Positions 7,622-55,509 of a stretch of DNA of 64,000 nt are shown here, one piece after another. This DNA comes from Escherichia phage vB_EcoM_Goslar. How positions within the stretch are numbered: the first letter of the stretch is position 1; each line of letters begins with the position of its first letter. Location of the stretch: the sequence record NC_048170.1; one strand, written 5' to 3'. A program made the position numbers and the translations under genes. Under the pieces are notes generated by a model. It saw only the letters and a list, made by a program, of their open reading frames with translations, searched no databases and had not been told where the DNA came from.

Positions 7622-7846
7622 TTAGCAATGGGTGTTAGTTGCTTCTATTTCGTCAAGATAAGGTTCTACGTCATCGCCCTCCACGAATTCGTTGAACCAG
7701 CAGTCAATGGTAGAAATAACCGGTGACTGGTGTTCACATTTCTTAGATACCTTAAAAGGTACGTTATTATCCATCATACCGAGTTCGGGTCGAAAACGCC
7801 CGAAATGTTTCGCAGTCCAAATGTCTGGGACGATATGGTTGTTCAT
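7622..7846 (-). CDS. non-virion-type RNAP beta' N-terminal subunit, proposed exon 3 (post-catalytic segment)
   Basis: Translation MNNHIVPDIWTAKHFGRFRPELGMMDNNVPFKVS... aligns with the E. coli beta' segment just after NADFDGD (QMAVHVPL...ALMMSTNNILSP). Proposed 3' splice site after G at 7847. ORF track reports 7622..7861. Confidence 0.5.
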   Translation of the reverse strand: MNNHIVPDIWTAKHFGRFRPELGMMDNNVPFKVSKKCEHQSPVISTIDCWFNEFVEGDDVEPYLDEIEATNTHC

Positions 7847-8201
7847 CGTGGTGTTCAGCATGAGTCGCTACCTCATACCCGCAGCTTTACCTGCAGCTTC
7901 CGGTGTTACCGGAATGTCCAGAATACATCTTATCCATATTCCAAATGGAACGTAGGACTTCCGCGCTGGATCTCGCTTGAGACCACGTATTCGTTGAACG
8001 TTCTCCTGAACGGAGCTTCGCTGCTGATCGAACATTGTCGCGTACGGTAGGCGTCCCCGAAGGGATTGTCATTGAAGCCGCGTACATCCGCTACCTTGTT
8101 TCTACCTTATCGGTTCCTCTTACGAGGCGTAGCGGCCTTAGCCCTTCCCAGCAATTCACGGAATCCAAGCTCTTCCTTTCGGAAGGCAGGGCCTATGATT
8201 A
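7847..8201 (-). mobile_element. group I intron 2 (ORF-less, about 355 nt) in the nvRNAP beta' gene
   Basis: Minus-strand core elements: P AAUUGCUGGGAA (plus 8144..8157), Q AUCAGCAGCG (8019..8028), R GUUCAACGAAUACG (7986..7999), S AAGAUGUAUUCUGG (7918..7931). R and S carry compensatory changes keeping the P7 pairing GAAUAC/GUAUUC. Boundaries obey exon-ends-in-U and intron-ends-in-G. Confidence 0.5.
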
Positions 8202-8214
8202 AGCGTCACCGTCG
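8202..8214 (-). CDS. proposed 13-nt micro-exon (C GAC GGU GAC GCU) supplying the DGD of the beta' NADFDGD motif
   Basis: Joining exon 1 (...AAU GCC GAC UU) + micro-exon + exon 3 (AUG AAC AAC CAU...) gives in-frame ...GYNADFDGDAMNNHIVPDIW..., matching E. coli NADFDGDQMAVHVPL in length. Both flanks obey the U/G splice rules. Hypothesis only. Confidence 0.35.
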
Positions 8215-9654
8215 CTTACGTGCACCGACGTTTATTAACTCATGGTTATCCACTGAAATACGGCGTTAGGGAAATAATCCTTCTTGCCGCGTTTTGAGAT
8301 TTGCAATGCCATATTACTCGGAGACAATCTGTAATGCCATGCTGCTTCATCGATAGAACTAAACTTCTTTGTTTCACCGTTATCAAAGATGATTTTCAAC
8401 GCCAGTTTAGGTAAATCGTCTTCCGTTTCTACTAATTCGAAAGAATCGATATTCTCTGCCAGCGTCAACGGATCAACTGGTAATATCAGCCAACCAGCAC
8501 GCTGCAATCCTCCACGTAGACTAATTTGTTTATTCAACGCAGGGGTAGCCATGCCAACTAACTTAGCAGCCAGCTTGCGGTCTTTAATATAAAGACGATA
8601 ATCTCCGGTATTATTAATAGCATACACACCAAAGTTATTGAACGATACCTTTCCAGCATCGGAACTAGTAAAGCCTACAAAGTCGTGGCTGTCGGTAGCC
8701 ACGTCGTATTTAAATGCTAATGGCTTGTTTCGACTGCCGCTAAGATACTTCTTGGCTGTAGATACCGATATGTTGAGATATCGTCCAATAGCATTCAAAC
8801 TTTCTAGTTCGATGATTTCTCCTGTCAATATGTCCTTTAACCGAACATTACCCATCGGTATTGGTGGTTTACCGACATAACCCAATTCACGATATGCGTG
8901 TTTCAAGTTATCTGAATCAGTAGCCCATTCCAAATTTTCTAGTCTGTTATCCCAACGCACCCCATTAAGATGATTAGGGACACGACGGATTATACCTGAC
9001 GTCGGATCTGGGTTAAATGTTTCAAGGACAATCTGATGATGGTATTTCACTTTATTGTTCCTAGTGAAAGCGCGATAGTTGTTTTTGCCCGACTTGGGTG
9101 GTTCAGTACGAAACAACACTGTCAGACTAGACACATCTACTATCGTACCGTTCTTATTAACAACGATACCATCAAAACCATTAACAGGACGATAATCAGA
9201 CAAACAATCTTCAGAAATTGCCTGTCCAACTAAAGGTTCACTCAATTTGACCTCCTTTATAAAAGAAGTCGGTGCACGTAATTATCGACTATATCTTCAT
9301 CCTCGTTGCGAGGAGTCTCCCGTTTTGGTCTGTGTTTAACAGAGCCTACTCTACTCGACATCGCGTCTTTCGATAGTCTGTGAGCACACATCTTAACGAA
9401 CATTCGTGGATTCCTAAACAGGTGAACGTTCTTGTTGAGATGCTTCGCTGCGGATTATTCCCGTCCTACCTCTTTTACCCTACCCAGTTCATTACGCTGG
9501 CCCTCATCTGTGTCACCACGATGAGTTGGTGTGTAGTCCGATTACAGAAACTTCCCGTCAATTAGAGAGTTTTAACTACGTTCCTGTTACCAGAAACCCG
9601 ACTCCGACGATATCAATAAATCAACGTAAGTTATTGATTTAATTGAAGAAACTG
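8215..9654 (-). mobile_element. group I intron 1 (about 1440 nt) in the nvRNAP beta' gene, carrying an HNH homing endonuclease ORF
   Basis: Minus-strand elements: IGS GAGUCGG (plus 9598..9604) pairs with exon end CCGACUU (U-G wobble at the splice site); P AAUUGACGGGAA (9552..9563); Q AAUCCGCAGC (9447..9456); R GUGCUCACAGACUAUCG (9371..9387); S AAGAUAUAGUCG (9286..9297). The HNH ORF sits in the loop of a perfect 10-bp stem (9268..9277 / 8220..8229); the intron ends GUAAG at 8215. Confidence 0.6.
8235..9245 (-). CDS. HNH homing endonuclease (intron-encoded)
   Basis: 336-aa ORF with HNH motif RRVPNHLNGVRWDNRLENLEWATDSDN and a helix-turn-helix-like DNA-binding segment (SLNAIGRYLNISVSTAKKYL). TTG start 4-5 nt after AAGGAGGU. 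Confidence 0.8.
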   Translation of the reverse strand: MSEPLVGQAISEDCLSDYRPVNGFDGIVVNKNGTIVDVSSLTVLFRTEPPKSGKNNYRAFTRNNKVKYHHQIVLETFNPDPTSGIIRRVPNHLNGVRWDNRLENLEWATDSDNLKHAYRELGYVGKPPIPMGNVRLKDILTGEIIELESLNAIGRYLNISVSTAKKYLSGSRNKPLAFKYDVATDSHDFVGFTSSDAGKVSFNNFGVYAINNTGDYRLYIKDRKLAAKLVGMATPALNKQISLRGGLQRAGWLILPVDPLTLAENIDSFELVETEDDLPKLALKIIFDNGETKKFSSIDEAAWHYRLSPSNMALQISKRGKKDYFPNAVFQWITMS

Positions 9655-10910
9655 AAGTCGGCATTATAACCTTTGAGGATCATCACGCTTAACCCGATGG
9701 TGTTATCCTGCGGATCGCGTTTAACCTTGGTGATTTCAAGACATTGGTTACTGCTTCGGTCAAGTGATGGGTTTCGAACAAAGCCACACACAATCCCATC
9801 GAACGGTGTATCAGCAATAAGCTCATCGTGCAGCTCGCTCATCATCGGATGATAATTACGGACATGTTCCGCAACGAACGCACGTGCTGCTCTCGGTGAA
9901 TAACCACGATGGAATAACTTGGATTGGATATGTTCTTTATTGGTTAAAGTAAATGGTGCGTATGGGAAATGCAGATGATAATAACGATGGTTCGCTGTTA
10001 TCGAACTGATTACAGTACGCGTGGTGAATGGATGTAATGTACCTAATATGTTTTTACGTGTAATACCTTTCTTCTTACCGATGAACTCATCGAAAATCGC
10101 CGCGTGGTATTGCAGCAGCTTCAATTGCACTTTCGCCATCCAGTTTTCTTTCTTTCTGGCGCTCAAAGGTGTTGTTGGATGATAGATACTATTCAACGTA
10201 CCGATAGCATCGATCGCACCTTCCATTTTGCTATCTGCATAACGACCGGTCGGCGTATTTTCGATAACGAACATCATGGCCGCAGGAAAGCTGATATACT
10301 GACTGAAGAACTTATCACGATGGATTCGGATGAATTCTCGTAGCGTGTCAACTTTCTCCGTGTTCTTCGGTCCACGTAACGTAGGTCCTTTATACAAGAT
10401 CTCCATGATGCGATCGAAGTTCTGTATAAAGCTATTTACGCCACGACGTATCCCGAATACATCGAATTGCTGCTCCAGATAGTTCTTGAGTTCGATGGGT
10501 CGTTTTACATTTGGACGGTAACTGGCATCAATGAGCCACGTCATCGTTTCAAAGCTTTTGATATTCAACTCGCTTGCCAGCACGAGATGGACCAACGGGT
10601 TAATGAACGCATCGATTCCTTCAGGAACACGCGCCCAAACCGTCGAACGAATCTCTTGTTCTGCTGGGTAGGTTACAACCGTTTTACAGTTTGGACACAC
10701 CGTGCCGAGTAGCTCACCACGATTGTAGAAACCACAACCACATTGTGGTGTGATATCCAACGTATCGCTGGAATAAACACGGGTGATAAAACTGTTTAAT
10801 TTCTTCTTCTCTTCGACGACTTTTGTATCGTAATCGTTCAACAAAATCGGCGTAAAAGGAAGTTCTGCGAGCTGTCTATCGAAACTCACGATATCGAGCA
10901 TGATGGCCAT
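9655..10910 (-). CDS. non-virion-type RNAP beta' N-terminal subunit, exon 1 (phiKZ gp55-like by position)
   Basis: Zn-binding CGCGFYNRGELLGTVCPNCK, beta' motif FIGKKKGITRKNILGTLHPFTTRTVISSI (cf. [23 protein letters not shown]), and the genomic ORF stops inside the catalytic motif (...ILKGYNADF-SFFN*). AGGAGA RBS before ATG at 10910. ORF track reports 9639..10910. Confidence 0.8.
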
Positions 10911-11002: not shown

Positions 11003-12898
11003 TTAGAACAGGTTGAATGCCCCACCCATGTTGTTAACGCCAACATTCGGACGATCGCTACGTGCGTAGATGTTACCGGAGATGTTACCCAGACCACGAG
11101 CACGTGCTGCCATGTTACCACGAACAGCGGTACCTGCCAGATGCTGGATGTTCTCAGGACGGATGGTGAAGCCAGCATCAGCAGCGGCTTCGATCAGCGC
11201 CTGCAGTGCTAACGGATCGAAGTCGTAACGCATTGCCCAGCCGGTTTGTTCCCAGCTACCAGACAGAACACGATCGATGATTTCGTGACGAGCGACAACA
11301 CGCTGAGACATCGTCATATCGGTACGGTCGAAGCTGTCTTCCCAAGCTTCTACGGTATCCGGGTTAGTGATGTTCATCATGTACAGATCGTCCATATCAC
11401 GAATATCGTGACGGTGACCATCCTGGTGGTTGTAGTGACCCAGCGGGATACGGTTACCGGTAGCGTAGACCAGCGGTAAGCCGTATTGATATTTCTTGCT
11501 GAAGCAACCCAGGGTAACATCATCGAACGCACGGTAAAGCGCTTTGTAACCTTCGGAGATTTCACGGACTTCACCTTCAACTTTGCCCGTATAGATCTTC
11601 TCAGCCGCCGGGATCATACGCAGCAGCCAGCTGTACTCACCTTCTTCCGGTACGTCGATAGAAATCAGCAGAGACGGATACAGTACCTGTTGCAGGAACT
11701 TGTAAATCTGCTCGTTGGTTTGAGTGGACAGATCCAGCGGTGCGGTAACTTCCGGATCCAGTACCATCGCCAGAGCACCCGGGTTATGCGGACCAATACC
11801 ACGGGCAGCGTTGCTGATTAAAGACTGTGCCCACGCCATACCGCTGTTCAGCGTAGCGATGGTGCCAATCAGCCCCAACACGAAAGTGTTCGGCGTGAAC
11901 GCATCCAGCTCCAGCGGGTAAGCGCTGGTCATCACGTAACGCGGCTGGTATTGTACAGTCGGCGGTACCGGATAACCGTTAACCAGAACAGGGCCTTGGT
12001 TGAAGGTCGGGTTCTGCGGGCTGTAGGTCAGGTCGATGTAACCGGTGGTGGCGACCAGACGCTGTTGACTATCGTAATCGCTCATCGCTTGACGGATACG
12101 GTTAGAGATAGTTACAGTGATGTCAGAACGCACAGGGTTACCAACAATATCGCTGTCCTGCATACCGCTGGTGTTATACTGAACGCTGCTGATTGGCTGA
12201 TCGCTTGCCATCATGCCCAGGTTGAACTGCGGCAGACCCAGTTTATCACCGAGACGGATTTCGATCGCGGTTTGGATTGCGTTATCTGCAGCAGACAGCA
12301 GGGTGGTTGCCAGATGCGCAGATTCAGCGGTGATTTCATTGGTCACCACAGCCAGACCAGCGATACGAGCAGTACCATTAGACTTACCGCCAATAGCTGC
12401 ATACATTGCCGCCATGACTTCGTTGATGAACGTACCGTTCAGGTTATCAACCCAGGTACGCGGTACCAGAATGTTACCATGCGGACCTTGTTCTTCACGA
12501 CGCGGCAGCGGAGCCAAACCGGCAACCAGCGGAAGCACATAACCAAAGAAGTGGTTATGGTCACCAACTTTTGCACCACTCATAACGACCAGGGTCGGAT
12601 ACGGTACGCTGTACTGGTTCGGGTCAACCGCAACAAAGATGAAGTCGTCTTTGAACCGGGTATCTTCCAGATATTTCTCCATCAGACGACGGAGATTCAG
12701 TACCTGCTCGGAGCCAGTATTACGGCTAATACGACGGCTCAGTGTACGGTTGATCGTACGCATCGTATGAGTTACTTTAGGCTGGCCAGCAAAATCTGCA
12801 GCGGTTTCCAGCGCCTCATCAGCACGTTGTGCGGTGCGGGTTTCAGCTGCACGAATTTCTACATTATCGTTACCGTTATTACGTACGTCTAAGCCCAT
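11003..12898 (-). CDS. probable phage-nucleus shell protein (chimallin/ChmA-like); highly expressed structural-type gene
   Basis: 631-aa ORF immediately upstream of, and co-oriented with, the nvRNAP beta' gene, as phiKZ gp54 is to gp55; strong terminator after it. Identity is inferred from size and synteny, not from motifs. Confidence 0.45.
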   Translation of the reverse strand: MGLDVRNNGNDNVEIRAAETRTAQRADEALETAADFAGQPKVTHTMRTINRTLSRRISRNTGSEQVLNLRRLMEKYLEDTRFKDDFIFVAVDPNQYSVPYPTLVVMSGAKVGDHNHFFGYVLPLVAGLAPLPRREEQGPHGNILVPRTWVDNLNGTFINEVMAAMYAAIGGKSNGTARIAGLAVVTNEITAESAHLATTLLSAADNAIQTAIEIRLGDKLGLPQFNLGMMASDQPISSVQYNTSGMQDSDIVGNPVRSDITVTISNRIRQAMSDYDSQQRLVATTGYIDLTYSPQNPTFNQGPVLVNGYPVPPTVQYQPRYVMTSAYPLELDAFTPNTFVLGLIGTIATLNSGMAWAQSLISNAARGIGPHNPGALAMVLDPEVTAPLDLSTQTNEQIYKFLQQVLYPSLLISIDVPEEGEYSWLLRMIPAAEKIYTGKVEGEVREISEGYKALYRAFDDVTLGCFSKKYQYGLPLVYATGNRIPLGHYNHQDGHRHDIRDMDDLYMMNITNPDTVEAWEDSFDRTDMTMSQRVVARHEIIDRVLSGSWEQTGWAMRYDFDPLALQALIEAAADAGFTIRPENIQHLAGTAVRGNMAARARGLGNISGNIYARSDRPNVGVNNMGGAFNLF

Positions 12899-13152
12899 TT
12901 GGGATTCCTCTTTTCTTAAACTTTATTAAATGACGTCATTGAATCAGCTTCTACTCGCTCATTCACCTAGGTAATATAACCCTGAAATTTTTTTCAATAT
13001 TGGTGTAACCACATTGAACGATATAAACCCCTAGGCGAACGCTGCCGAGAAGCAACATTCTTTCTACATATAATCAGGATATGTCTGTAAACTTTTACTT
13101 CTCTTATTGAGAGTAATGTCATATCCGTTTACTACCTTCTTACGGAGTTCGT

Positions 13153-14247
13153 ATGTTTCGTGTTTTAAATAACCTCCCGCGAACATCATCGGGTGTGCAA
13201 CCCGTCCCTCAGAAAGACTATCTAATACGCGAAGTTCAAAGAAACCTACAGACAATCCAGAACCACTATCAAGGTTTTACCTTCGCGGTTCAGAGCGATC
13301 ACATCCTTGCGTTGCTGCTCGCACAGCTCCCTATGAGATACGACATCTCAGTACAAACTTACTACGACATGATTCTCGATCTTACCCCAGAATTGGGTAA
13401 TCGTGTCAAGTTGACAACATCAAGATACGCGGGTAAGTTATTCGACGGTGCTTTCTATCCGGGACTGCACGAAGCTATTATCGCAACCGGTGAAAGTCGT
13501 CTTATTTCACGTGATGTTCTTGACAACTGGCGTAATTGGTCACCAGTTAGAATCGTGACGCACCCATACGCAAATCTTCGTTACATTCCTCTTCACCAAA
13601 AGCAGGTTGAAGAAGGACGAGGTTTTGCGGTCATTATGGTTGATGTGCCTTTGTTAGCGCTACAGTATCGAATGTGGTCTTTGGTCATGGGTCATAACGT
13701 CGACGGTAAATGGGTGGTTAAAGAACCGGTTACAAGCTTCCTTGCGAGTTTTCCGTTGGTTAACGCATTATACTCACACAACGATGTTGTTATACGCAAT
13801 CGTTGTTTGTGGGTATCACCGGCTAAGAATCCACTCAAATCACCAATTTACGTTAACGACCTTGATAACGTATTCAGCCAAGTCGTTCTGTCCGTACAGC
13901 ATCATTTATTACGAAGAAGACGAAGCTACACCGATATGCTTAAACAGATACCGAGTTTATACGGGGATCAGTACCAAGCAACCCGAATGGGTTACACCGT
14001 CGATCTTCGACAAACACGATGGGCAAGGGATCTGGGTTGTCTGTCATTATGGCAACAACTCGTCACATTGCAAAACGTATCTGAAAGCGTCGGGTTCAGC
14101 AGTCAAATCGATAACGACCTGTACCGTGCTGCTGACCGTAGTCTAAAAGAAGGTAACTGGGAGTCCTCTCCGTTACCTGGCGATTTAAGACGTGAAGTTA
14201 TCGCACAGGTTGCCGACCTCTTAAAAATTCTTCCCGCCGGTGCATAA
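13153..14247 (+). CDS. hypothetical protein
   Basis: 364-aa plus-strand ORF, divergent from the 631-aa gene and convergent with the 717-aa gene. Confidence 0.6.
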   Translation: MFRVLNNLPRTSSGVQPVPQKDYLIREVQRNLQTIQNHYQGFTFAVQSDHILALLLAQLPMRYDISVQTYYDMILDLTPELGNRVKLTTSRYAGKLFDGAFYPGLHEAIIATGESRLISRDVLDNWRNWSPVRIVTHPYANLRYIPLHQKQVEEGRGFAVIMVDVPLLALQYRMWSLVMGHNVDGKWVVKEPVTSFLASFPLVNALYSHNDVVIRNRCLWVSPAKNPLKSPIYVNDLDNVFSQVVLSVQHHLLRRRRSYTDMLKQIPSLYGDQYQATRMGYTVDLRQTRWARDLGCLSLWQQLVTLQNVSESVGFSSQIDNDLYRAADRSLKEGNWESSPLPGDLRREVIAQVADLLKILPAGA

Positions 14248-51573: not shown

Positions 51574-51754
51574 TTAGGCTCCACGAGGTCCCGTTAAGTT
51601 GCGTAATAGGAACGCAACCGTATCGTAACCAATATCAATGTTGAATTTATTTTTACCACTTACCCAGAAAGCTCGCTTCTTGTGCGAGTTGGTAATTTCG
51701 TCAATAGCTTCCATGGAATAAAGAACGTTAACCGAGACCGTATCACCGTCGAAC
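51574..51754 (-). CDS. virion-type RNAP beta' N-terminal subunit, proposed exon 2
   Basis: In-frame segment (G)FDGDTVSVNVLYSMEAIDEITNSHKK...GPRGA* aligns with E. coli [20 protein letters not shown]; a stop lies 3 codons upstream, so the exon must begin here; it ends 3 nt before the beta gene ATG. Confidence 0.5.
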
Positions 51755-53807
51755 CTTGTCTTCGCCTCAGGTCGCTACGCTGAGACCGCCTGCATGGATA
51801 CGTACATCACAGGCTGCTTGCACTTTCATGCAAGAGGAGACTATATCAAACCGTCAGCTTCACTTTCTCGATCATATCGAGAATGCGGCGCTGAAGTATT
51901 CTTCAGCAGCACCTGTTACGGTAACCTACACTTCGAAGACGCTTGTCCTCTACAGGGTGGTAAATCCCTTAGTCGTTGAACCTGCGTTGTTTCACATTCT
52001 TACAACCAAGAATGCCGTATTGCTACGCAATAACCAGGCTGCTGATTGCCCATTGTCTCGCACCTTAGCACCGCTTACGCGGCTTTTCTTTCAGCCTAAG
52101 CCTCTTACGGAGGTAGTGCATCTCAACTGTTGTTTCTGCCTTTCGGCACCTCATGGGTCGTTGAGCTTTAGGGGTTCCCAGCAATTCGTAGGTTTTTCAA
52201 GCACTCCCTTTCAGGAATACCGGACCTTATAGAAAAGCTATTTATTCAAGTATCTGAAATCCCACTTATCCTTACGTCTATTATCGCACTTGATGTCAGG
52301 ATGTCTAACACGGTGTTGAATCGTAGTCGCTGGTAATTGACTCACATTCACAGCCGATTTCGCGCCAAGAACAATTGTTTTTGTGTTGTCCGGACGAGTA
52401 ACTTCTACCGCTCGATGATGTTTACGTAACACATCACGCCAATACTCACGCCGTTCCGGTTCCGCGTATTCGAGCATATAACCGTTGGTATCGACCAGAC
52501 CGTAACTCTCGTTTAAACGAGAGGTGGCGGCTGGTCTACTAATACCAATCGCTTTAGCCGCGTCAACCACGGTTTTATACGGGGTCTCATTACCGTCTCT
52601 ATCTACAACCACAATAAAATCTGGACGCGAATCGAGCAGCTGCTGTCTTCGTTCAAGGGCTTGTTGATGAAGCACCTTATTAACATGTTCGAACCCGTAA
52701 CCTTCTGGACCGTGCCACCCTGGATTGTTATTCGCTCGATAAAGTATCGTCGCAGATTTCACTCCCGTCTGACGTGACGCCTCGTTCGCACTATGGACAA
52801 CCGTGGTAGTGCCATCAGGGTGATATATCCGTATCTGGTTCATTATACCAGAACCAACGAAATTACCATCAGCTGATTTAATGTCCGGCCAGGGTTGTGG
52901 ATCATCTTTGAATTTAACCACCCAACGGTTGTTAAACAATTTGACTTTCCGAGCATGTTTACCTAATGTCGTGTCTGTAACACCGGCTACAGCAGAGGCT
53001 TGCGCGATACTAGGATATTCCGTGACCACATCTTCTTCAGTATCCCAAAGGAGAACCGGTTTGTTATCATCACGTAGTCCGGTCTCAACCGCATGTAGAA
53101 TATTTCTAAGGCGGGTTGCCCATTCTAGATTGTCTAACGCGTAATTCCACTTATCGCCATCAAGATGGTTAACGTCCATCCTATCGACATCAGCCGGATA
53201 ATCTTTCCACGCTAAGAGCAGACAGCGATGAAGCGATCTTCTCTGGGATTTAAATCGGCAATCATGCTGCATACTAACGAAAACATAGCTATCGTCAACA
53301 CACCAGTGAGGACACTGACGGCCAGTAATACGGTTGATGATTCTACCTTTCCGGTTGGCCAAATAACGAGTGTGTCCGGGAATGACACGATAACCTGGGT
53401 ACTTAGCGATTTCGTAAGCAGGCTCGAACCGATAGGATAAATTATCAACATCCCAGTTAGATTCGTCACCATCAACAAACATCGCTTTGACGTATTTCTG
53501 TGTTTCAATATCAACCAGGATGTTTTTGTGTGCGATACAAATCAATGCTGGGATATTGAATTCGCGACCGGCTATGATAACCGTGTCGCCATTTCTCGGT
53601 ACCTCGACGTGGGTATCGCGATACCGTAAGTTTCCATAGCCGTCTATTTCAATCCAGCTTAAAAACGGAATGGGTATAAACTCTTTTTCAGATACTCGCC
53701 ATTTAAACATTTCAATACCTATTAATTACCACTTTCATATTAATAGGTTTAAAAGTTAAATTTGCCAGAAAACTGGCATTTTGTTAGCCTTTCCTTGATC
53801 ACCGCCA
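51755..53807 (-). mobile_element. group I intron (about 2.05 kb) in the vRNAP beta' gene, HNH ORF in the P1 loop
   Basis: Minus-strand elements: exon end CCGGACU (plus 53808..53814) pairs with IGS GGUCCGG (52220..52226) with U-G at the splice site; P AAUUGCUGGGAA (52175..52186); Q AAUCAGCAGCC (52037..52047); R GUUCAACGACUAAG (51968..51981); S UUGAUAUAGUCUCC (51836..51849). Intron ends in G at 51755. 5' splice site could instead be at 53798. Confidence 0.55.
52238..53710 (-). CDS. HNH homing endonuclease (intron-encoded)
   Basis: 490-aa ORF with HNH motif DRMDVNHLDGDKWNYALDNLEWATRLRNILH, similar to the HNH in the other RNAP intron; lies between the beta' exon 1 and the intron core. Confidence 0.8.
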   Translation of the reverse strand: MFKWRVSEKEFIPIPFLSWIEIDGYGNLRYRDTHVEVPRNGDTVIIAGREFNIPALICIAHKNILVDIETQKYVKAMFVDGDESNWDVDNLSYRFEPAYEIAKYPGYRVIPGHTRYLANRKGRIINRITGRQCPHWCVDDSYVFVSMQHDCRFKSQRRSLHRCLLLAWKDYPADVDRMDVNHLDGDKWNYALDNLEWATRLRNILHAVETGLRDDNKPVLLWDTEEDVVTEYPSIAQASAVAGVTDTTLGKHARKVKLFNNRWVVKFKDDPQPWPDIKSADGNFVGSGIMNQIRIYHPDGTTTVVHSANEASRQTGVKSATILYRANNNPGWHGPEGYGFEHVNKVLHQQALERRQQLLDSRPDFIVVVDRDGNETPYKTVVDAAKAIGISRPAATSRLNESYGLVDTNGYMLEYAEPERREYWRDVLRKHHRAVEVTRPDNTKTIVLGAKSAVNVSQLPATTIQHRVRHPDIKCDNRRKDKWDFRYLNK

Positions 53808-55264
53808 AGTCCGGCGAGGTATGGCGCAGGGACAATAGTAGTTTCTACGAACGAGGCATTAGGTAACCAGTCGGGGTATTCCCACGCAATAAATCGCTCA
53901 TCCGTTATTGGTTCCCAGTTACTATCAAGTTCAGTTTTCGGTTTTGCTGCAACGGTCGTACGCGCGTAACAGGTTAACGGAATGACGGATTGCATACCCG
54001 ATACCGGATAACGTGTTACCATTGCAGCCAGGTTATTCCAGTATTTATATCCTGCGATATACACTAATTCGGTATACGTGATAGGGTGAACATCTGCACC
54101 AGGTTTGTTAAGCATCTCCGGAGGTAATTCACTCATACCACGGAATAACCGAAACGAATCATTGTTCACATAGACAAGACAAAGATATCGTCCATTAACC
54201 ATGATAGGTTCGTTACGCACACCCGGATCGCTTAAGGTGTTCAGTAAGCGTTCTATTCCGTCCCAGGTTGTAAAGTCATCGATGGTGTCTGGATCAAGCG
54301 TGACGCGTTCACGTTCCATCGTTTCGGTATCAATAAGTTCAACTTCTGTAACATCACGGACAAATATTTCCTGCAAAATCCCCGTACGTAATGCATGTTG
54401 CGTTACAGGGAGAGCAGCTTTACTCATCTGGTATAACCCTAACTGAACCGCGGTACAGGAAGGCTGGTTAGGCGACCCTAGTACCTCCGTTGTGGGGTTA
54501 ATTGCTGAAATAACGTTACGGGTTGAGTTCCAAACGCGACGTGAACCAAACTTACCTTGGAAGATCCCTTTCTTACCTTGGAACATATCCAACAACAAAG
54601 CGTAGATATCGTTAAATGTTCTCTGTAAGCTCCAGCGCTGGCCGTCGTAAACGGGATCAGAATAATCTTTTAATCCATCGGGGACGGTGTTAGAAATTGC
54701 AAGGAAACGACGATACAACTCTGTAATCTCTTGCTCGCTTTCATACCCGCCTTCTTTTACTTCTATTTCACGTAAGCCTGCAGGCAATACCAGTAAGTGA
54801 CGGGTCATCGCTTTGAACATGTTCTCTTCGACAACTTTAATTCGTAGCTCTCGTTGAGCTGAGCCCGTTGAAACGAACTTGATATCCGCGACGTGTTGTG
54901 CAAAGAACCCGTATCCTGTTTGTCCTGTTAACGCATCAGACGCAACGAAGTCGCGTTGTTCAGGATCCCAACGAGCGTACGCCTTCCCCGACATGATATC
55001 ACCATAGAGGTGTTTTAGTCGAATGAGGCGGTCGTAAATGACAGGGTGCAGGATTTCAACTTTACATTCAATCACCGCAAATCGACGGTCTCGATCTTCA
55101 CTACCCGCACTACCAAAGATGGTGTAAGAATAGAAACCATCATCGTGGAAATTACCGGTGCTTGGGTCACGAATGCTCATGCTCGTGATCTTGGGGAGAA
55201 AACGTAACTGCTGTTTATCGAGGTGTAAAATGCTAATGTTAAACGGCTCTCTGACTTTAGCCAT
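53808..55264 (-). CDS. virion-type RNAP beta' N-terminal subunit, exon 1 (phiKZ gp178-like by position); start trimmed
   Basis: Beta' motifs RFAVIECKVEILHPVIY (cf. RMGHIELAAPVAHIWF) and FQGKKGIFQGKFGSRRVWNSTRNVISAINP (cf. [27 protein letters not shown]). ORF track gives 53756..55306; ATG at 55264 has an AGAGGAG RBS; 3' end set at the P1-predicted splice site. Confidence 0.65.
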
Positions 55265-55509
55265 GGAGACACTCCTCTTTACCACCACCGGCTGCGGCGG
55301 TATCATCTGAACACACGAGAGACGTAATGGGTGATGGCGTCACCCATCGCTTCCTTGCTTGAGGCGAGGAAGTTATTAGGTTACGTACCTGCGTGATAAA
55401 ATCAAGCAGGCGATGTGTGAAGTTACGCTTCAACATTATCAATGCCGAAGGTAAACTTCGTGCATCACGTTCCAACGTAACATGGGAACGTATCGAACTG
55501 GAGGTATAC

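Follow-up and report, generated by a model that had tools for sequence, protein, structure and literature searches.

This study concerns a split gene in a stretch of 64,000 nucleotides (nt) from Escherichia phage vB_EcoM_Goslar (sequence record NC_048170.1), hereafter the 64-kilobase (kb) window. The gene, which is predicted to encode the N-terminal beta' subunit of the non-virion RNA polymerase (nvRNAP) of the phage, is very probably interrupted within the coding sequence of its catalytic motif NADFDGD by two independent group I introns, between which an exon of 13 nt is left. A preliminary description of the same DNA had proposed a micro-exon at 8202..8214 that codes for DGD, and this proposal is borne out by the uniqueness of the 13-mer, its in-frame join, the gapless alignment of the joined product with its homologues and the synonymous variation found in relatives. 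We infer that splicing occurs and that it is autocatalytic. All parts of the locus are on the minus strand, and coordinates refer to the window.

Exon 1 (9655..10910), recognised by the translation of its open reading frame (ORF) and by full-length alignment to uninterrupted homologues, ends in ...AAA GGT TAT AAT GCC GAC TT (K G Y N A D F-), with the final bases GACUU at 9655. The micro-exon (CGACGGTGACGCT as the minus-strand sequence) finishes the Phe codon and then codes for Asp-Gly-Asp-Ala of NADFDGDA, its last bases being ...GCU at 8202. Exon 3 (7622..7846), identified by translation and alignment, begins AUG AAC AAC CAU AUC... and is read as MNNHIVPD...THC followed by a stop. When the three segments are joined (9655..10910 + 8202..8214 + 7622..7846), they give 1494 nt in frame and a protein of 497 amino acids (aa) that reads ...KGYNADFDGDAMNNHIVPD.... 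The predicted ligated junction is ...AATGCCGACTT/CGACGGTGACGCT/ATGAACAACCAT..., and the predicted tryptic peptide that spans it is GYNADFDGDAMNNHIVPDIWTAK. Within the whole window, the 13-mer CGACGGUGACGCU has one occurrence, namely that at 8202..8214. If exon 1 is joined directly to exon 3, both the frame and DGD are lost, and the NADFDGD motif is whole only with the micro-exon included. The boundaries also follow the rules set out in the preliminary description: exon 1 and the micro-exon both end in U (...GACUU and ...GCU), and both introns end in G (...GUAAG for intron 1, with the terminal G at 8215, and ...CCACG for intron 2, with the terminal G at 7847).

Gene callers give a truncated 423-aa protein, an HNH endonuclease gene and a 79-aa orphan ORF at this locus, where the actual predicted product is a 497-aa catalytic RNA polymerase subunit. 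The 423-aa ORF (9639..10910) reads ...KGYNADF and then continues into residues without homology, and the 79-aa ORF (7622..7861) includes MNNHIVPD.... Annotation based on proteins or on Rfam thresholds is not expected to detect a 13-nt exon that holds most of an active-site triad, a problem that extends to many metagenomic jumbo phages.

By comparison with its homologues, the joined 497-aa product is assigned as the N-terminal beta' subunit of a phiKZ-like non-virion RNA polymerase. Its matches to uninterrupted proteins of ~490 aa span 95-100% of the length. The best uninterrupted homologue, P0002 (496 aa, 65% identical), contains PF00623, which is present in homologues of the joined protein, and reads YNADFDGDAMN without a gap, as the join predicts. 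The joined protein also matches PHIKZ055 (phiKZ gp55; 7ogp_A, from the solved phiKZ non-virion RNA polymerase) over residues 21-476 with E=1.1e-74, and this alignment is gapless at NADFDGD (...NADFDGDAMNNHIVPD against ...NADFDGDQLNLTLMPD). Exon 3 corresponds in the alignments to the last 75 residues of P0002, P0003 and phiKZ gp55, and NADFDGD is nearly invariant in the multiple alignment of homologues. The earlier claim that the join keeps the reading frame and the collinearity of the Asp triad thus agrees with the gapless matches to P0002 and phiKZ gp55. Among annotated phages, the relatives found by tblastn are all at most ~35% identical and are recorded as 'RNA polymerase beta/beta' subunit' of phiKZ-like jumbo phages; the 4-kb region has no megablast match among INPHARED phages. 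In IMG/VR, the contig UViG_2974650247_000001 is 100% identical to the window over 4 kb.

Intron 1 (8215..9654) is a group I intron of 1440 nt with its core at the 5' end and an HNH ORF looped out near the 3' end. Its conserved core, P3-P9 with P/Q/R/S, is recognised by the covariance model of the family: Rfam RF00028 matches 9269..9645 over the full model (1-253) with 46.9 bits and E=5.4e-10. The internal guide, 5'-UCGUCGGAGUCGG-3' (UCGUCG/GAGUCGG; 9598..9610), pairs with both neighbouring exons. Its 3' 7 nt, GAGUCGG, pair with the exon-1 end CCGACUU to form P1, with the U.G wobble at the splice site, and its 5' 6 nt, UCGUCG, pair with nt 1-6 of the micro-exon, CGACGG, to form P10. Together, P1 and P10 make up 13 contiguous pairs, a result that was matched in one of 20000 shuffles of the first 120 nt of the intron.

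Near-identical phages carry other sets of introns at the same place. We compared three loci (L007, L008 and L063) whose exons are 94-98% identical to those of the window, with exon 1 at ~98%. The window and a further locus, L006, have the order exon 1, intron 1 with HNH, CGACGGTGACGCT, intron 2 and exon 3. In L007, the order is ...TACAACGCT, intron X, GACTTTGACGGTGATGCC, intron Y and ATGAACAAC.... Here the intron-1 site is empty, that is, GACTTTGACGGTGATGCC is uninterrupted, the exon-1 end is contiguous with the micro-exon, and the micro-exon is 18 nt long; the intron-less site of this type reads ...AACGCTGACTTTGACGGTGATGCCATGAAC.... The intron-2 site is filled by intron Y, a homologue of intron 2, and intron X, which follows AACGCU, is a further member of the family; the two are paralogues of each other, with Rfam scores of 26.4 (X) and 28.0 (Y) bits. 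In L008 and L063, the order is ...AAAGGGT, intron A, ATAATGCAGATTT, intron 1 without an ORF, CGACGGTGACGCT (CGACGGGGATGCT in L063), intron 2 and ATGAACAAC..., so that three introns lie inside 27 coding nt and leave two micro-exons of 13 nt each.

Intron A (365-366 nt; L008 6244..6608, L063 1468..1833) is inserted after ...AAAGGGT, 13 nt upstream of intron 1. It scores 30.3 bits with Rfam and 55 bits with R1, a model built on intron 2 that serves as a family finder only and whose scores are not structural evidence. In the first micro-exon of L008, nt 2-6 pair with the guide of intron A and nt 7-13 with that of intron 1, so that 12 of the 13 nt are claimed. Among these phages, the micro-exons differ by synonymous changes only (for example, CGACGGGGATGCT in L063 and ..GACGGTGATGCC in L007), and the differences at the exon ends are likewise synonymous. 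As a side observation, reading through intron A yields a 449-aa protein, P0001, whose 90% cluster holds 159 sequences; hence, the intron A variant may be common in public read archives.

It might be argued that a DGD-encoding 13-mer between ribozyme-like sequences is a mere coincidence, and the shortness of the segment, though nothing else, speaks for this view. However, the 13-mer is in frame on both sides and encodes precisely the residues (F)DGDA seen in the nearest homologue, L063 and L007 conserve it apart from synonymous changes, the guide of intron 1 is complementary to it, and analogous micro-exons are present in at least eight other loci. The probability of such a coincidence is negligible, and we regard it as already refuted by the comparative data.

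The guide of intron 1 also covaries with its exon. In L008 and L063, the exon end is CAGAUUU and the guide is GGAUCUG, while P10 is kept; in P1, C-G gives way to U-A at position -3 and to A-U at position -6, which amounts to two double compensatory changes. These data bear on the question of whether 7847..9654 could be removed as one unit, either as a composite intron or through obligatory exon skipping, with the 13-mer remaining outside the functional messenger RNA (mRNA). Twort orf142 and the 23S ribosomal RNA (rRNA) of Coxiella are both documented cases in which the exon between tandem group I introns is skipped (cited in PMC10136302), and a minor skipped product may be formed in the window as well. 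Nevertheless, removal as one unit is highly improbable. The resulting exon 1-exon 3 join would be out of frame and without DGD, and the P10 of intron 1 fits CGACGG of the micro-exon, not AUGAAC of exon 3. Moreover, introns 1 and 2 occur independently of each other in the relatives, the changes in the micro-exon are synonymous only, and the two ribozymes are dissimilar, with R1 giving no match to intron 1 at E<=1.

Intron 2 (7847..8201) is an ORF-less group I intron of 355 nt. Its G+C content is 52%, compared with 43-45% in the exons and 41% in the HNH ORF. The second P/Q/R/S core that had been reported between the HNH ORF and exon 3 was located in full, all four elements being found at 7918..8156: P (AAUUGCUGGGAA, 8145..8156), Q (AUCAGCAGCG, 8019..8028), R (GUUCAACGAAUACG, 7986..7999) and S (AAGAUGUAUUCUGG, 7918..7931). 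The helices of intron 2, namely P1, P2 (with a GAAA loop), P3, P4, an extended P5, P6/6a, P7, P7.1, P8, P9, P9.1 and P9.2, were drawn by hand, and the structure was tested by covariation, including the P3/P7 pseudoknot, on a set of five introns (set A3: the window, L008, L063, L007 Y and L007 X). On this set, the structure comprises 95 pairs, with 98.9% of cells paired and both sides changed in 28 pairs. None of 500 shuffles reaches this result, and when the partners are slid by 1-3 columns, pairing falls to 35-44%. Compensatory changes are seen in three pairs of P7 and in all six of P7.1, and the full group I helix set, including the P3/P7 pseudoknot, is kept by covariation. Note that intron 1 of the distant locus L004 was left out of the covariation set because several of its helices were misaligned in the MAFFT alignment.

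The guide of intron 2, UCAUAGGC (UCAU-A-GGC; 8191..8198), pairs with GCU and AUGA. Its P1, GCU/U with AGGC, consists of three exon pairs (GCU/GGC) plus the pair +1:+8, and its P10 is AUGA/UCAU; all five family members end in G. The +1:+8 pair is U-A in the window and A-U in L007 Y, and the guide CAUGGC of L007 Y is a perfect complement of 6 base pairs (bp) to the ligated junction GCC/AUG. The shortness of this P1 had been singled out as the weakest link, and rightly so in terms of the single sequence, but the comparison with relatives goes some way towards rescuing it. The existence of two separate group I introns is thus supported by their independent occupancy in relatives, by the covariation of the intron 1 guide and by that of the intron 2 fold.

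Several observations weigh against the presence of two functional introns. The score of intron 1 is 3 bits under the Rfam gathering score of 50. Intron 2 stays below the gathering score altogether: a 4-kb scan gave no match to it, and a 461-nt scan gave a partial one (model 50-157, the P3-P7 half; 16.7 bits, E=0.067). The covariance-model check that had been suggested for both introns thus gives a full-length match for intron 1 and the partial one for intron 2, whose assignment to group I is based on its structural features. The single-sequence folding of intron 2 by minimum free energy (MFE) has a z-score of -2.19, and its P1/P10 pairing is not distinctive, as a run of at least 6 pairs is found in 26% of shuffles. 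Since these single-sequence tests are too weak, comparison with relatives is required for intron 2, and its covariation comes from five sequences, three of which are near-identical.

In addition, L007 Y follows GAUGCC (6619/6620), which gives C-G at the 5' splice site, not U.G. A U.G wobble at this position is near-universal in group I introns, and a C there is unusual. A 5' site after GGUGAU, which would restore the U at -1, was considered and rejected: it deletes a residue between DGD and M that is present in all aligned homologues. Finally, a 100%-identical full-length protein from a spliced or intron-less gene was not found among 5.8 billion protein clusters, and a search of IMG/VR with a degenerate 36-nt pattern returned neither an intron-less junction nor one resembling complementary DNA.

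The weak Rfam score would suit an intron 2 that is a decayed, non-splicing relic, in which case the gene would be either a pseudogene or a source of separate fragments of 423 aa and 79 aa (7622..7861), with the RNA polymerase function supplied from elsewhere. In line with this, the AUG at 7861, with GAGG 9 nt upstream, could start the 79-aa product, and the beta' subunit of jumbo phages is already divided into separate polypeptides. However, compensatory changes preserve every helix of intron 2 across family members that occupy two insertion sites. Both the GAGG and the AUG belong to the P9.2 hairpin, which is conserved, and L007 X lacks the AUG. Neither fragment would contain the catalytic Asp triad, a feature of every aligned homologue, and the gene is the single syntenic neighbour of the chimallin gene, as in intron-less relatives. 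On balance, we consider a relic quite improbable and retain two splicing introns as the preferred interpretation.

With two splicing introns, each would be an autonomous group I ribozyme whose own guide sets its own splice sites. P1 would offer the 5' splice site to exogenous guanosine, and P10 together with the terminal G would place the 3' splice site for ligation. Specifically, intron 1 would use the last 7 nt of exon 1 for P1 and micro-exon nt 1-6 for P10, and intron 2 would use micro-exon nt 11-13 for P1 and the first 4 nt of exon 3 for P10. Because micro-exon nt 1-6 and 11-13 are used separately, the introns could act independently, and either may go first. Removal of both would leave an mRNA consisting of exon 1, CGACGGUGACGCU and exon 3, which would encode the 497-aa protein with the Asp triad intact. 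Nucleus-forming phages transcribe in a ribosome-free compartment, and for this reason the introns would have to splice without the help of translation.

The ORF inside intron 1 (8235..9245; 336 aa, TTG start) is identified as an I-HmuI-like HNH homing endonuclease by its Pfam domains, HNH_3 (31.1 bits, cut-off 24.8) and NUMOD1 (24.0 bits, cut-off 22.8). It also has a weak I-HmuI NUMOD-like match, which at 16.9 bits is under the cut-off. A strong Shine-Dalgarno-like sequence (AAGGAGG) lies ahead of the TTG start, at 9243..9257. The HNH domain and the NUMOD-type DNA-binding module are thus found in a peripheral intron loop, closed by a stem, on the 3' side of the core. This stem is formed by a 14-nt inverted repeat, of which the 5' arm, UUACGUGCACCGAC (9268..9281), pairs with the 3' arm, GUCGGUGCACGUAA (8216..8229), and the terminal G of intron 1 at 8215 comes directly after the latter. 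Because the inverted repeat closes the cassette, the terminal G stays adjacent to the core.

The intron 1 of L008 and L063 is 376 nt long, has no ORF and ends in ...GAUAA-C-AG; the single C there corresponds to the 1065-nt cassette 8217..9281 of the window. The ORF-less intron 1 of L008 scores 46.5 bits with Rfam. The HNH ORF behaves like a discrete cassette with the 14-nt inverted repeat at its bounds. The ORF-less form is also nearly without P9, having only 8 nt from P7 to the terminal G (L008 6990..6997). Introns that are otherwise identical differ in whether they hold the HNH ORF, and ~98%-identical phages differ in whether they have intron 1 at all. By analogy with known homing endonucleases, the HNH protein presumably nicks intron-less alleles and thereby drives homing. 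The presence/absence polymorphism at ~98% identity suggests active homing, possibly with endonuclease-mediated competition.

The arrangement recurs in distant jumbo phages, where micro-exons of 9 to 20 nt lie between introns that are above the Rfam threshold. In L004 (~30% protein identity), two introns of 54.8 and 68.3 bits, both above the gathering score, flank GATTTCGACGGT (DFDG, 12 nt). L051 has four tandem introns that reach the gathering score, the last three being separated by CCAAATGCTGAT (12 nt) and TTTGATGGT (9 nt), and L045 has three tandem introns with TTTGACGGT (9 nt) between two of them. By inspection, L014, L019, L053 and L054 have similar layouts. If a short internal exon is taken as one of a few tens of nt or fewer between two group I introns, the 13-nt exon of the window falls well within this class. 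According to a manual count, the protein match is broken at or just upstream of the motif in 19 of the 57 IMG/VR loci, and at least eight insertion positions are found across the relatives in the ~30 nt that encode the motif. As a separate observation, one tandem intron in the group of L051 (6143..7664), L045 (6140..8696; three or more introns) and L057 (~6077) has its insertion point in the conserved RNPSL motif, which precedes NADFDGD by ~35 codons, with exons ending in ...QRN or ...RNPTL.

With up to three introns in 27 coding nt, up to four tandem introns per beta' gene (L051) and near-identical co-circulating phages that differ in the sites they have filled, it can be suggested tentatively, and with more doubt than conviction, that the ~30 nt for NADFDGD are a contested homing hot spot. 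Stacked introns would break each other's endonuclease sites and would thus act as mutual immunity or as weapons, and the micro-exons would be the footprint of this arms race. A corollary is that splicing must be ordered at the 9-nt micro-exons, since the P10 of the upstream intron and a 6-bp P1 of the downstream intron cannot coexist there. If the suggestion is correct, the introns would play a part when co-infecting nucleus-forming phages compete with each other, as was demonstrated for PhiPA3 gp210.

The mechanism considered here is ordinary group I splicing, which is already known, and short exons between group I introns have been described in several systems. The closest is orf142 of Staphylococcus phage Twort, where introns 2 and 3 of a total of three group I introns enclose an exon of 23 nt and where exon skipping was shown (Landthaler and Shub 1999, as cited in PMC10136302 and PMC11620839). 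The two cases share a phage protein gene, tandem group I introns, a very short exon and the need for P1/P10 pairing to that exon. They differ in the length of the exon, which is 23 nt in Twort but 13 nt here and between 9 and 13 nt in relatives, and in that Twort introns 2 and 3 are highly similar whereas the window introns are dissimilar and do not qualify as close paralogues. Furthermore, the micro-exon of the window codes for most of the catalytic metal-binding triad of an enzyme. In Coxiella burnetii 23S rRNA, a 34-nt exon lies between two group I introns (cited in PMC10136302); introns of different subgroups surround a short exon in an essential gene, as in the window, but the exon is longer and, in an rRNA gene, free of any reading-frame constraint.

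Among the Chimalliviridae, jumbo phage PhiPA3 carries the HNH homing endonuclease gp210 in a group I intron of its virion RNA polymerase (vRNAP) beta gene, for which endonuclease activity and effects on competition were shown (PMC11620839), and a further intron in nvRNAP gp65-66 (PMC11077065). As in the window, an HNH group I intron thus lies beside the catalytic aspartates of a multisubunit RNA polymerase gene in a jumbo phage of this group. In PhiPA3, however, the introns are single as described, gp210 is in the beta subunit gene, and no micro-exon is described, whereas in the window two introns (three in close relatives) are crowded into the beta' NADFDGD coding sequence. Mitochondrial genes such as cox1, in fungi and elsewhere, also contain mini-exons flanked by group I introns (PMC10352661, PMC12308204). 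They resemble the present case in being very short, in lying in highly conserved coding sequence and in being routinely missed by gene finders; on the other hand, splicing in organelles often depends on maturases or host proteins, whereas the gene in the window belongs to a lytic phage and would have to be spliced within one infection cycle.

Compared with these systems, the new points are the 9-13-nt exon in a phage, its catalytic-triad content, the density of insertion sites and the polymorphism among near-identical phages. The loci provide natural cases of group I ribozymes with internal exons of 9 to 13 nt, compared with 23 nt in Twort, that are shared between one P10 and the next P1. In the literature searched, which mostly excluded subscription journals and so does not amount to proof, we found no description of these introns or of a phage micro-exon this small.

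In the vicinity of the beta' gene, the chimallin gene (11003..12898, minus strand), identified by a domain match (PF25677), is the adjoining gene, and a divergent family-B DNA polymerase comes after it. The order from chimallin to beta' is common to intron-less and intron-containing relatives (L001, L002 and L004). Elsewhere in the window, a second beta'-like gene (51574..55306, minus strand), which probably encodes a subunit of the virion RNA polymerase, is also split in its DFDGD motif. Its exon 1 ends in ...GGC GGT GAT at 53798, and its exon 2 reads TTC GAC GGT GAT ACG from 51753 and reaches a stop at 51574, so that the layout is ...GGCGGTGAT, intron 51754..53797 and TTCGACGGTGAT.... The intron contains a 490-aa HNH_3/NUMOD1 ORF (52238..53710) upstream of its core (51817..52245; Rfam 67.7 bits). 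Since this gene is also split in DFDGD, both RNA polymerases of the phage would carry an intron in the catalytic loop.

Other mobile elements are found near the beta' gene in the relatives. In L004, an IS605 OrfB / Cas12f-like TnpB gene (9019..10251; PF12323, PF01385, PF07282) follows the intron-rich beta' gene at a distance of ~1 kb. In L002, the region a few kb past the beta' gene contains a GIY-YIG/NUMOD3 endonuclease ORF (12454..13278), which again points to dense homing-endonuclease traffic in the beta' gene block.

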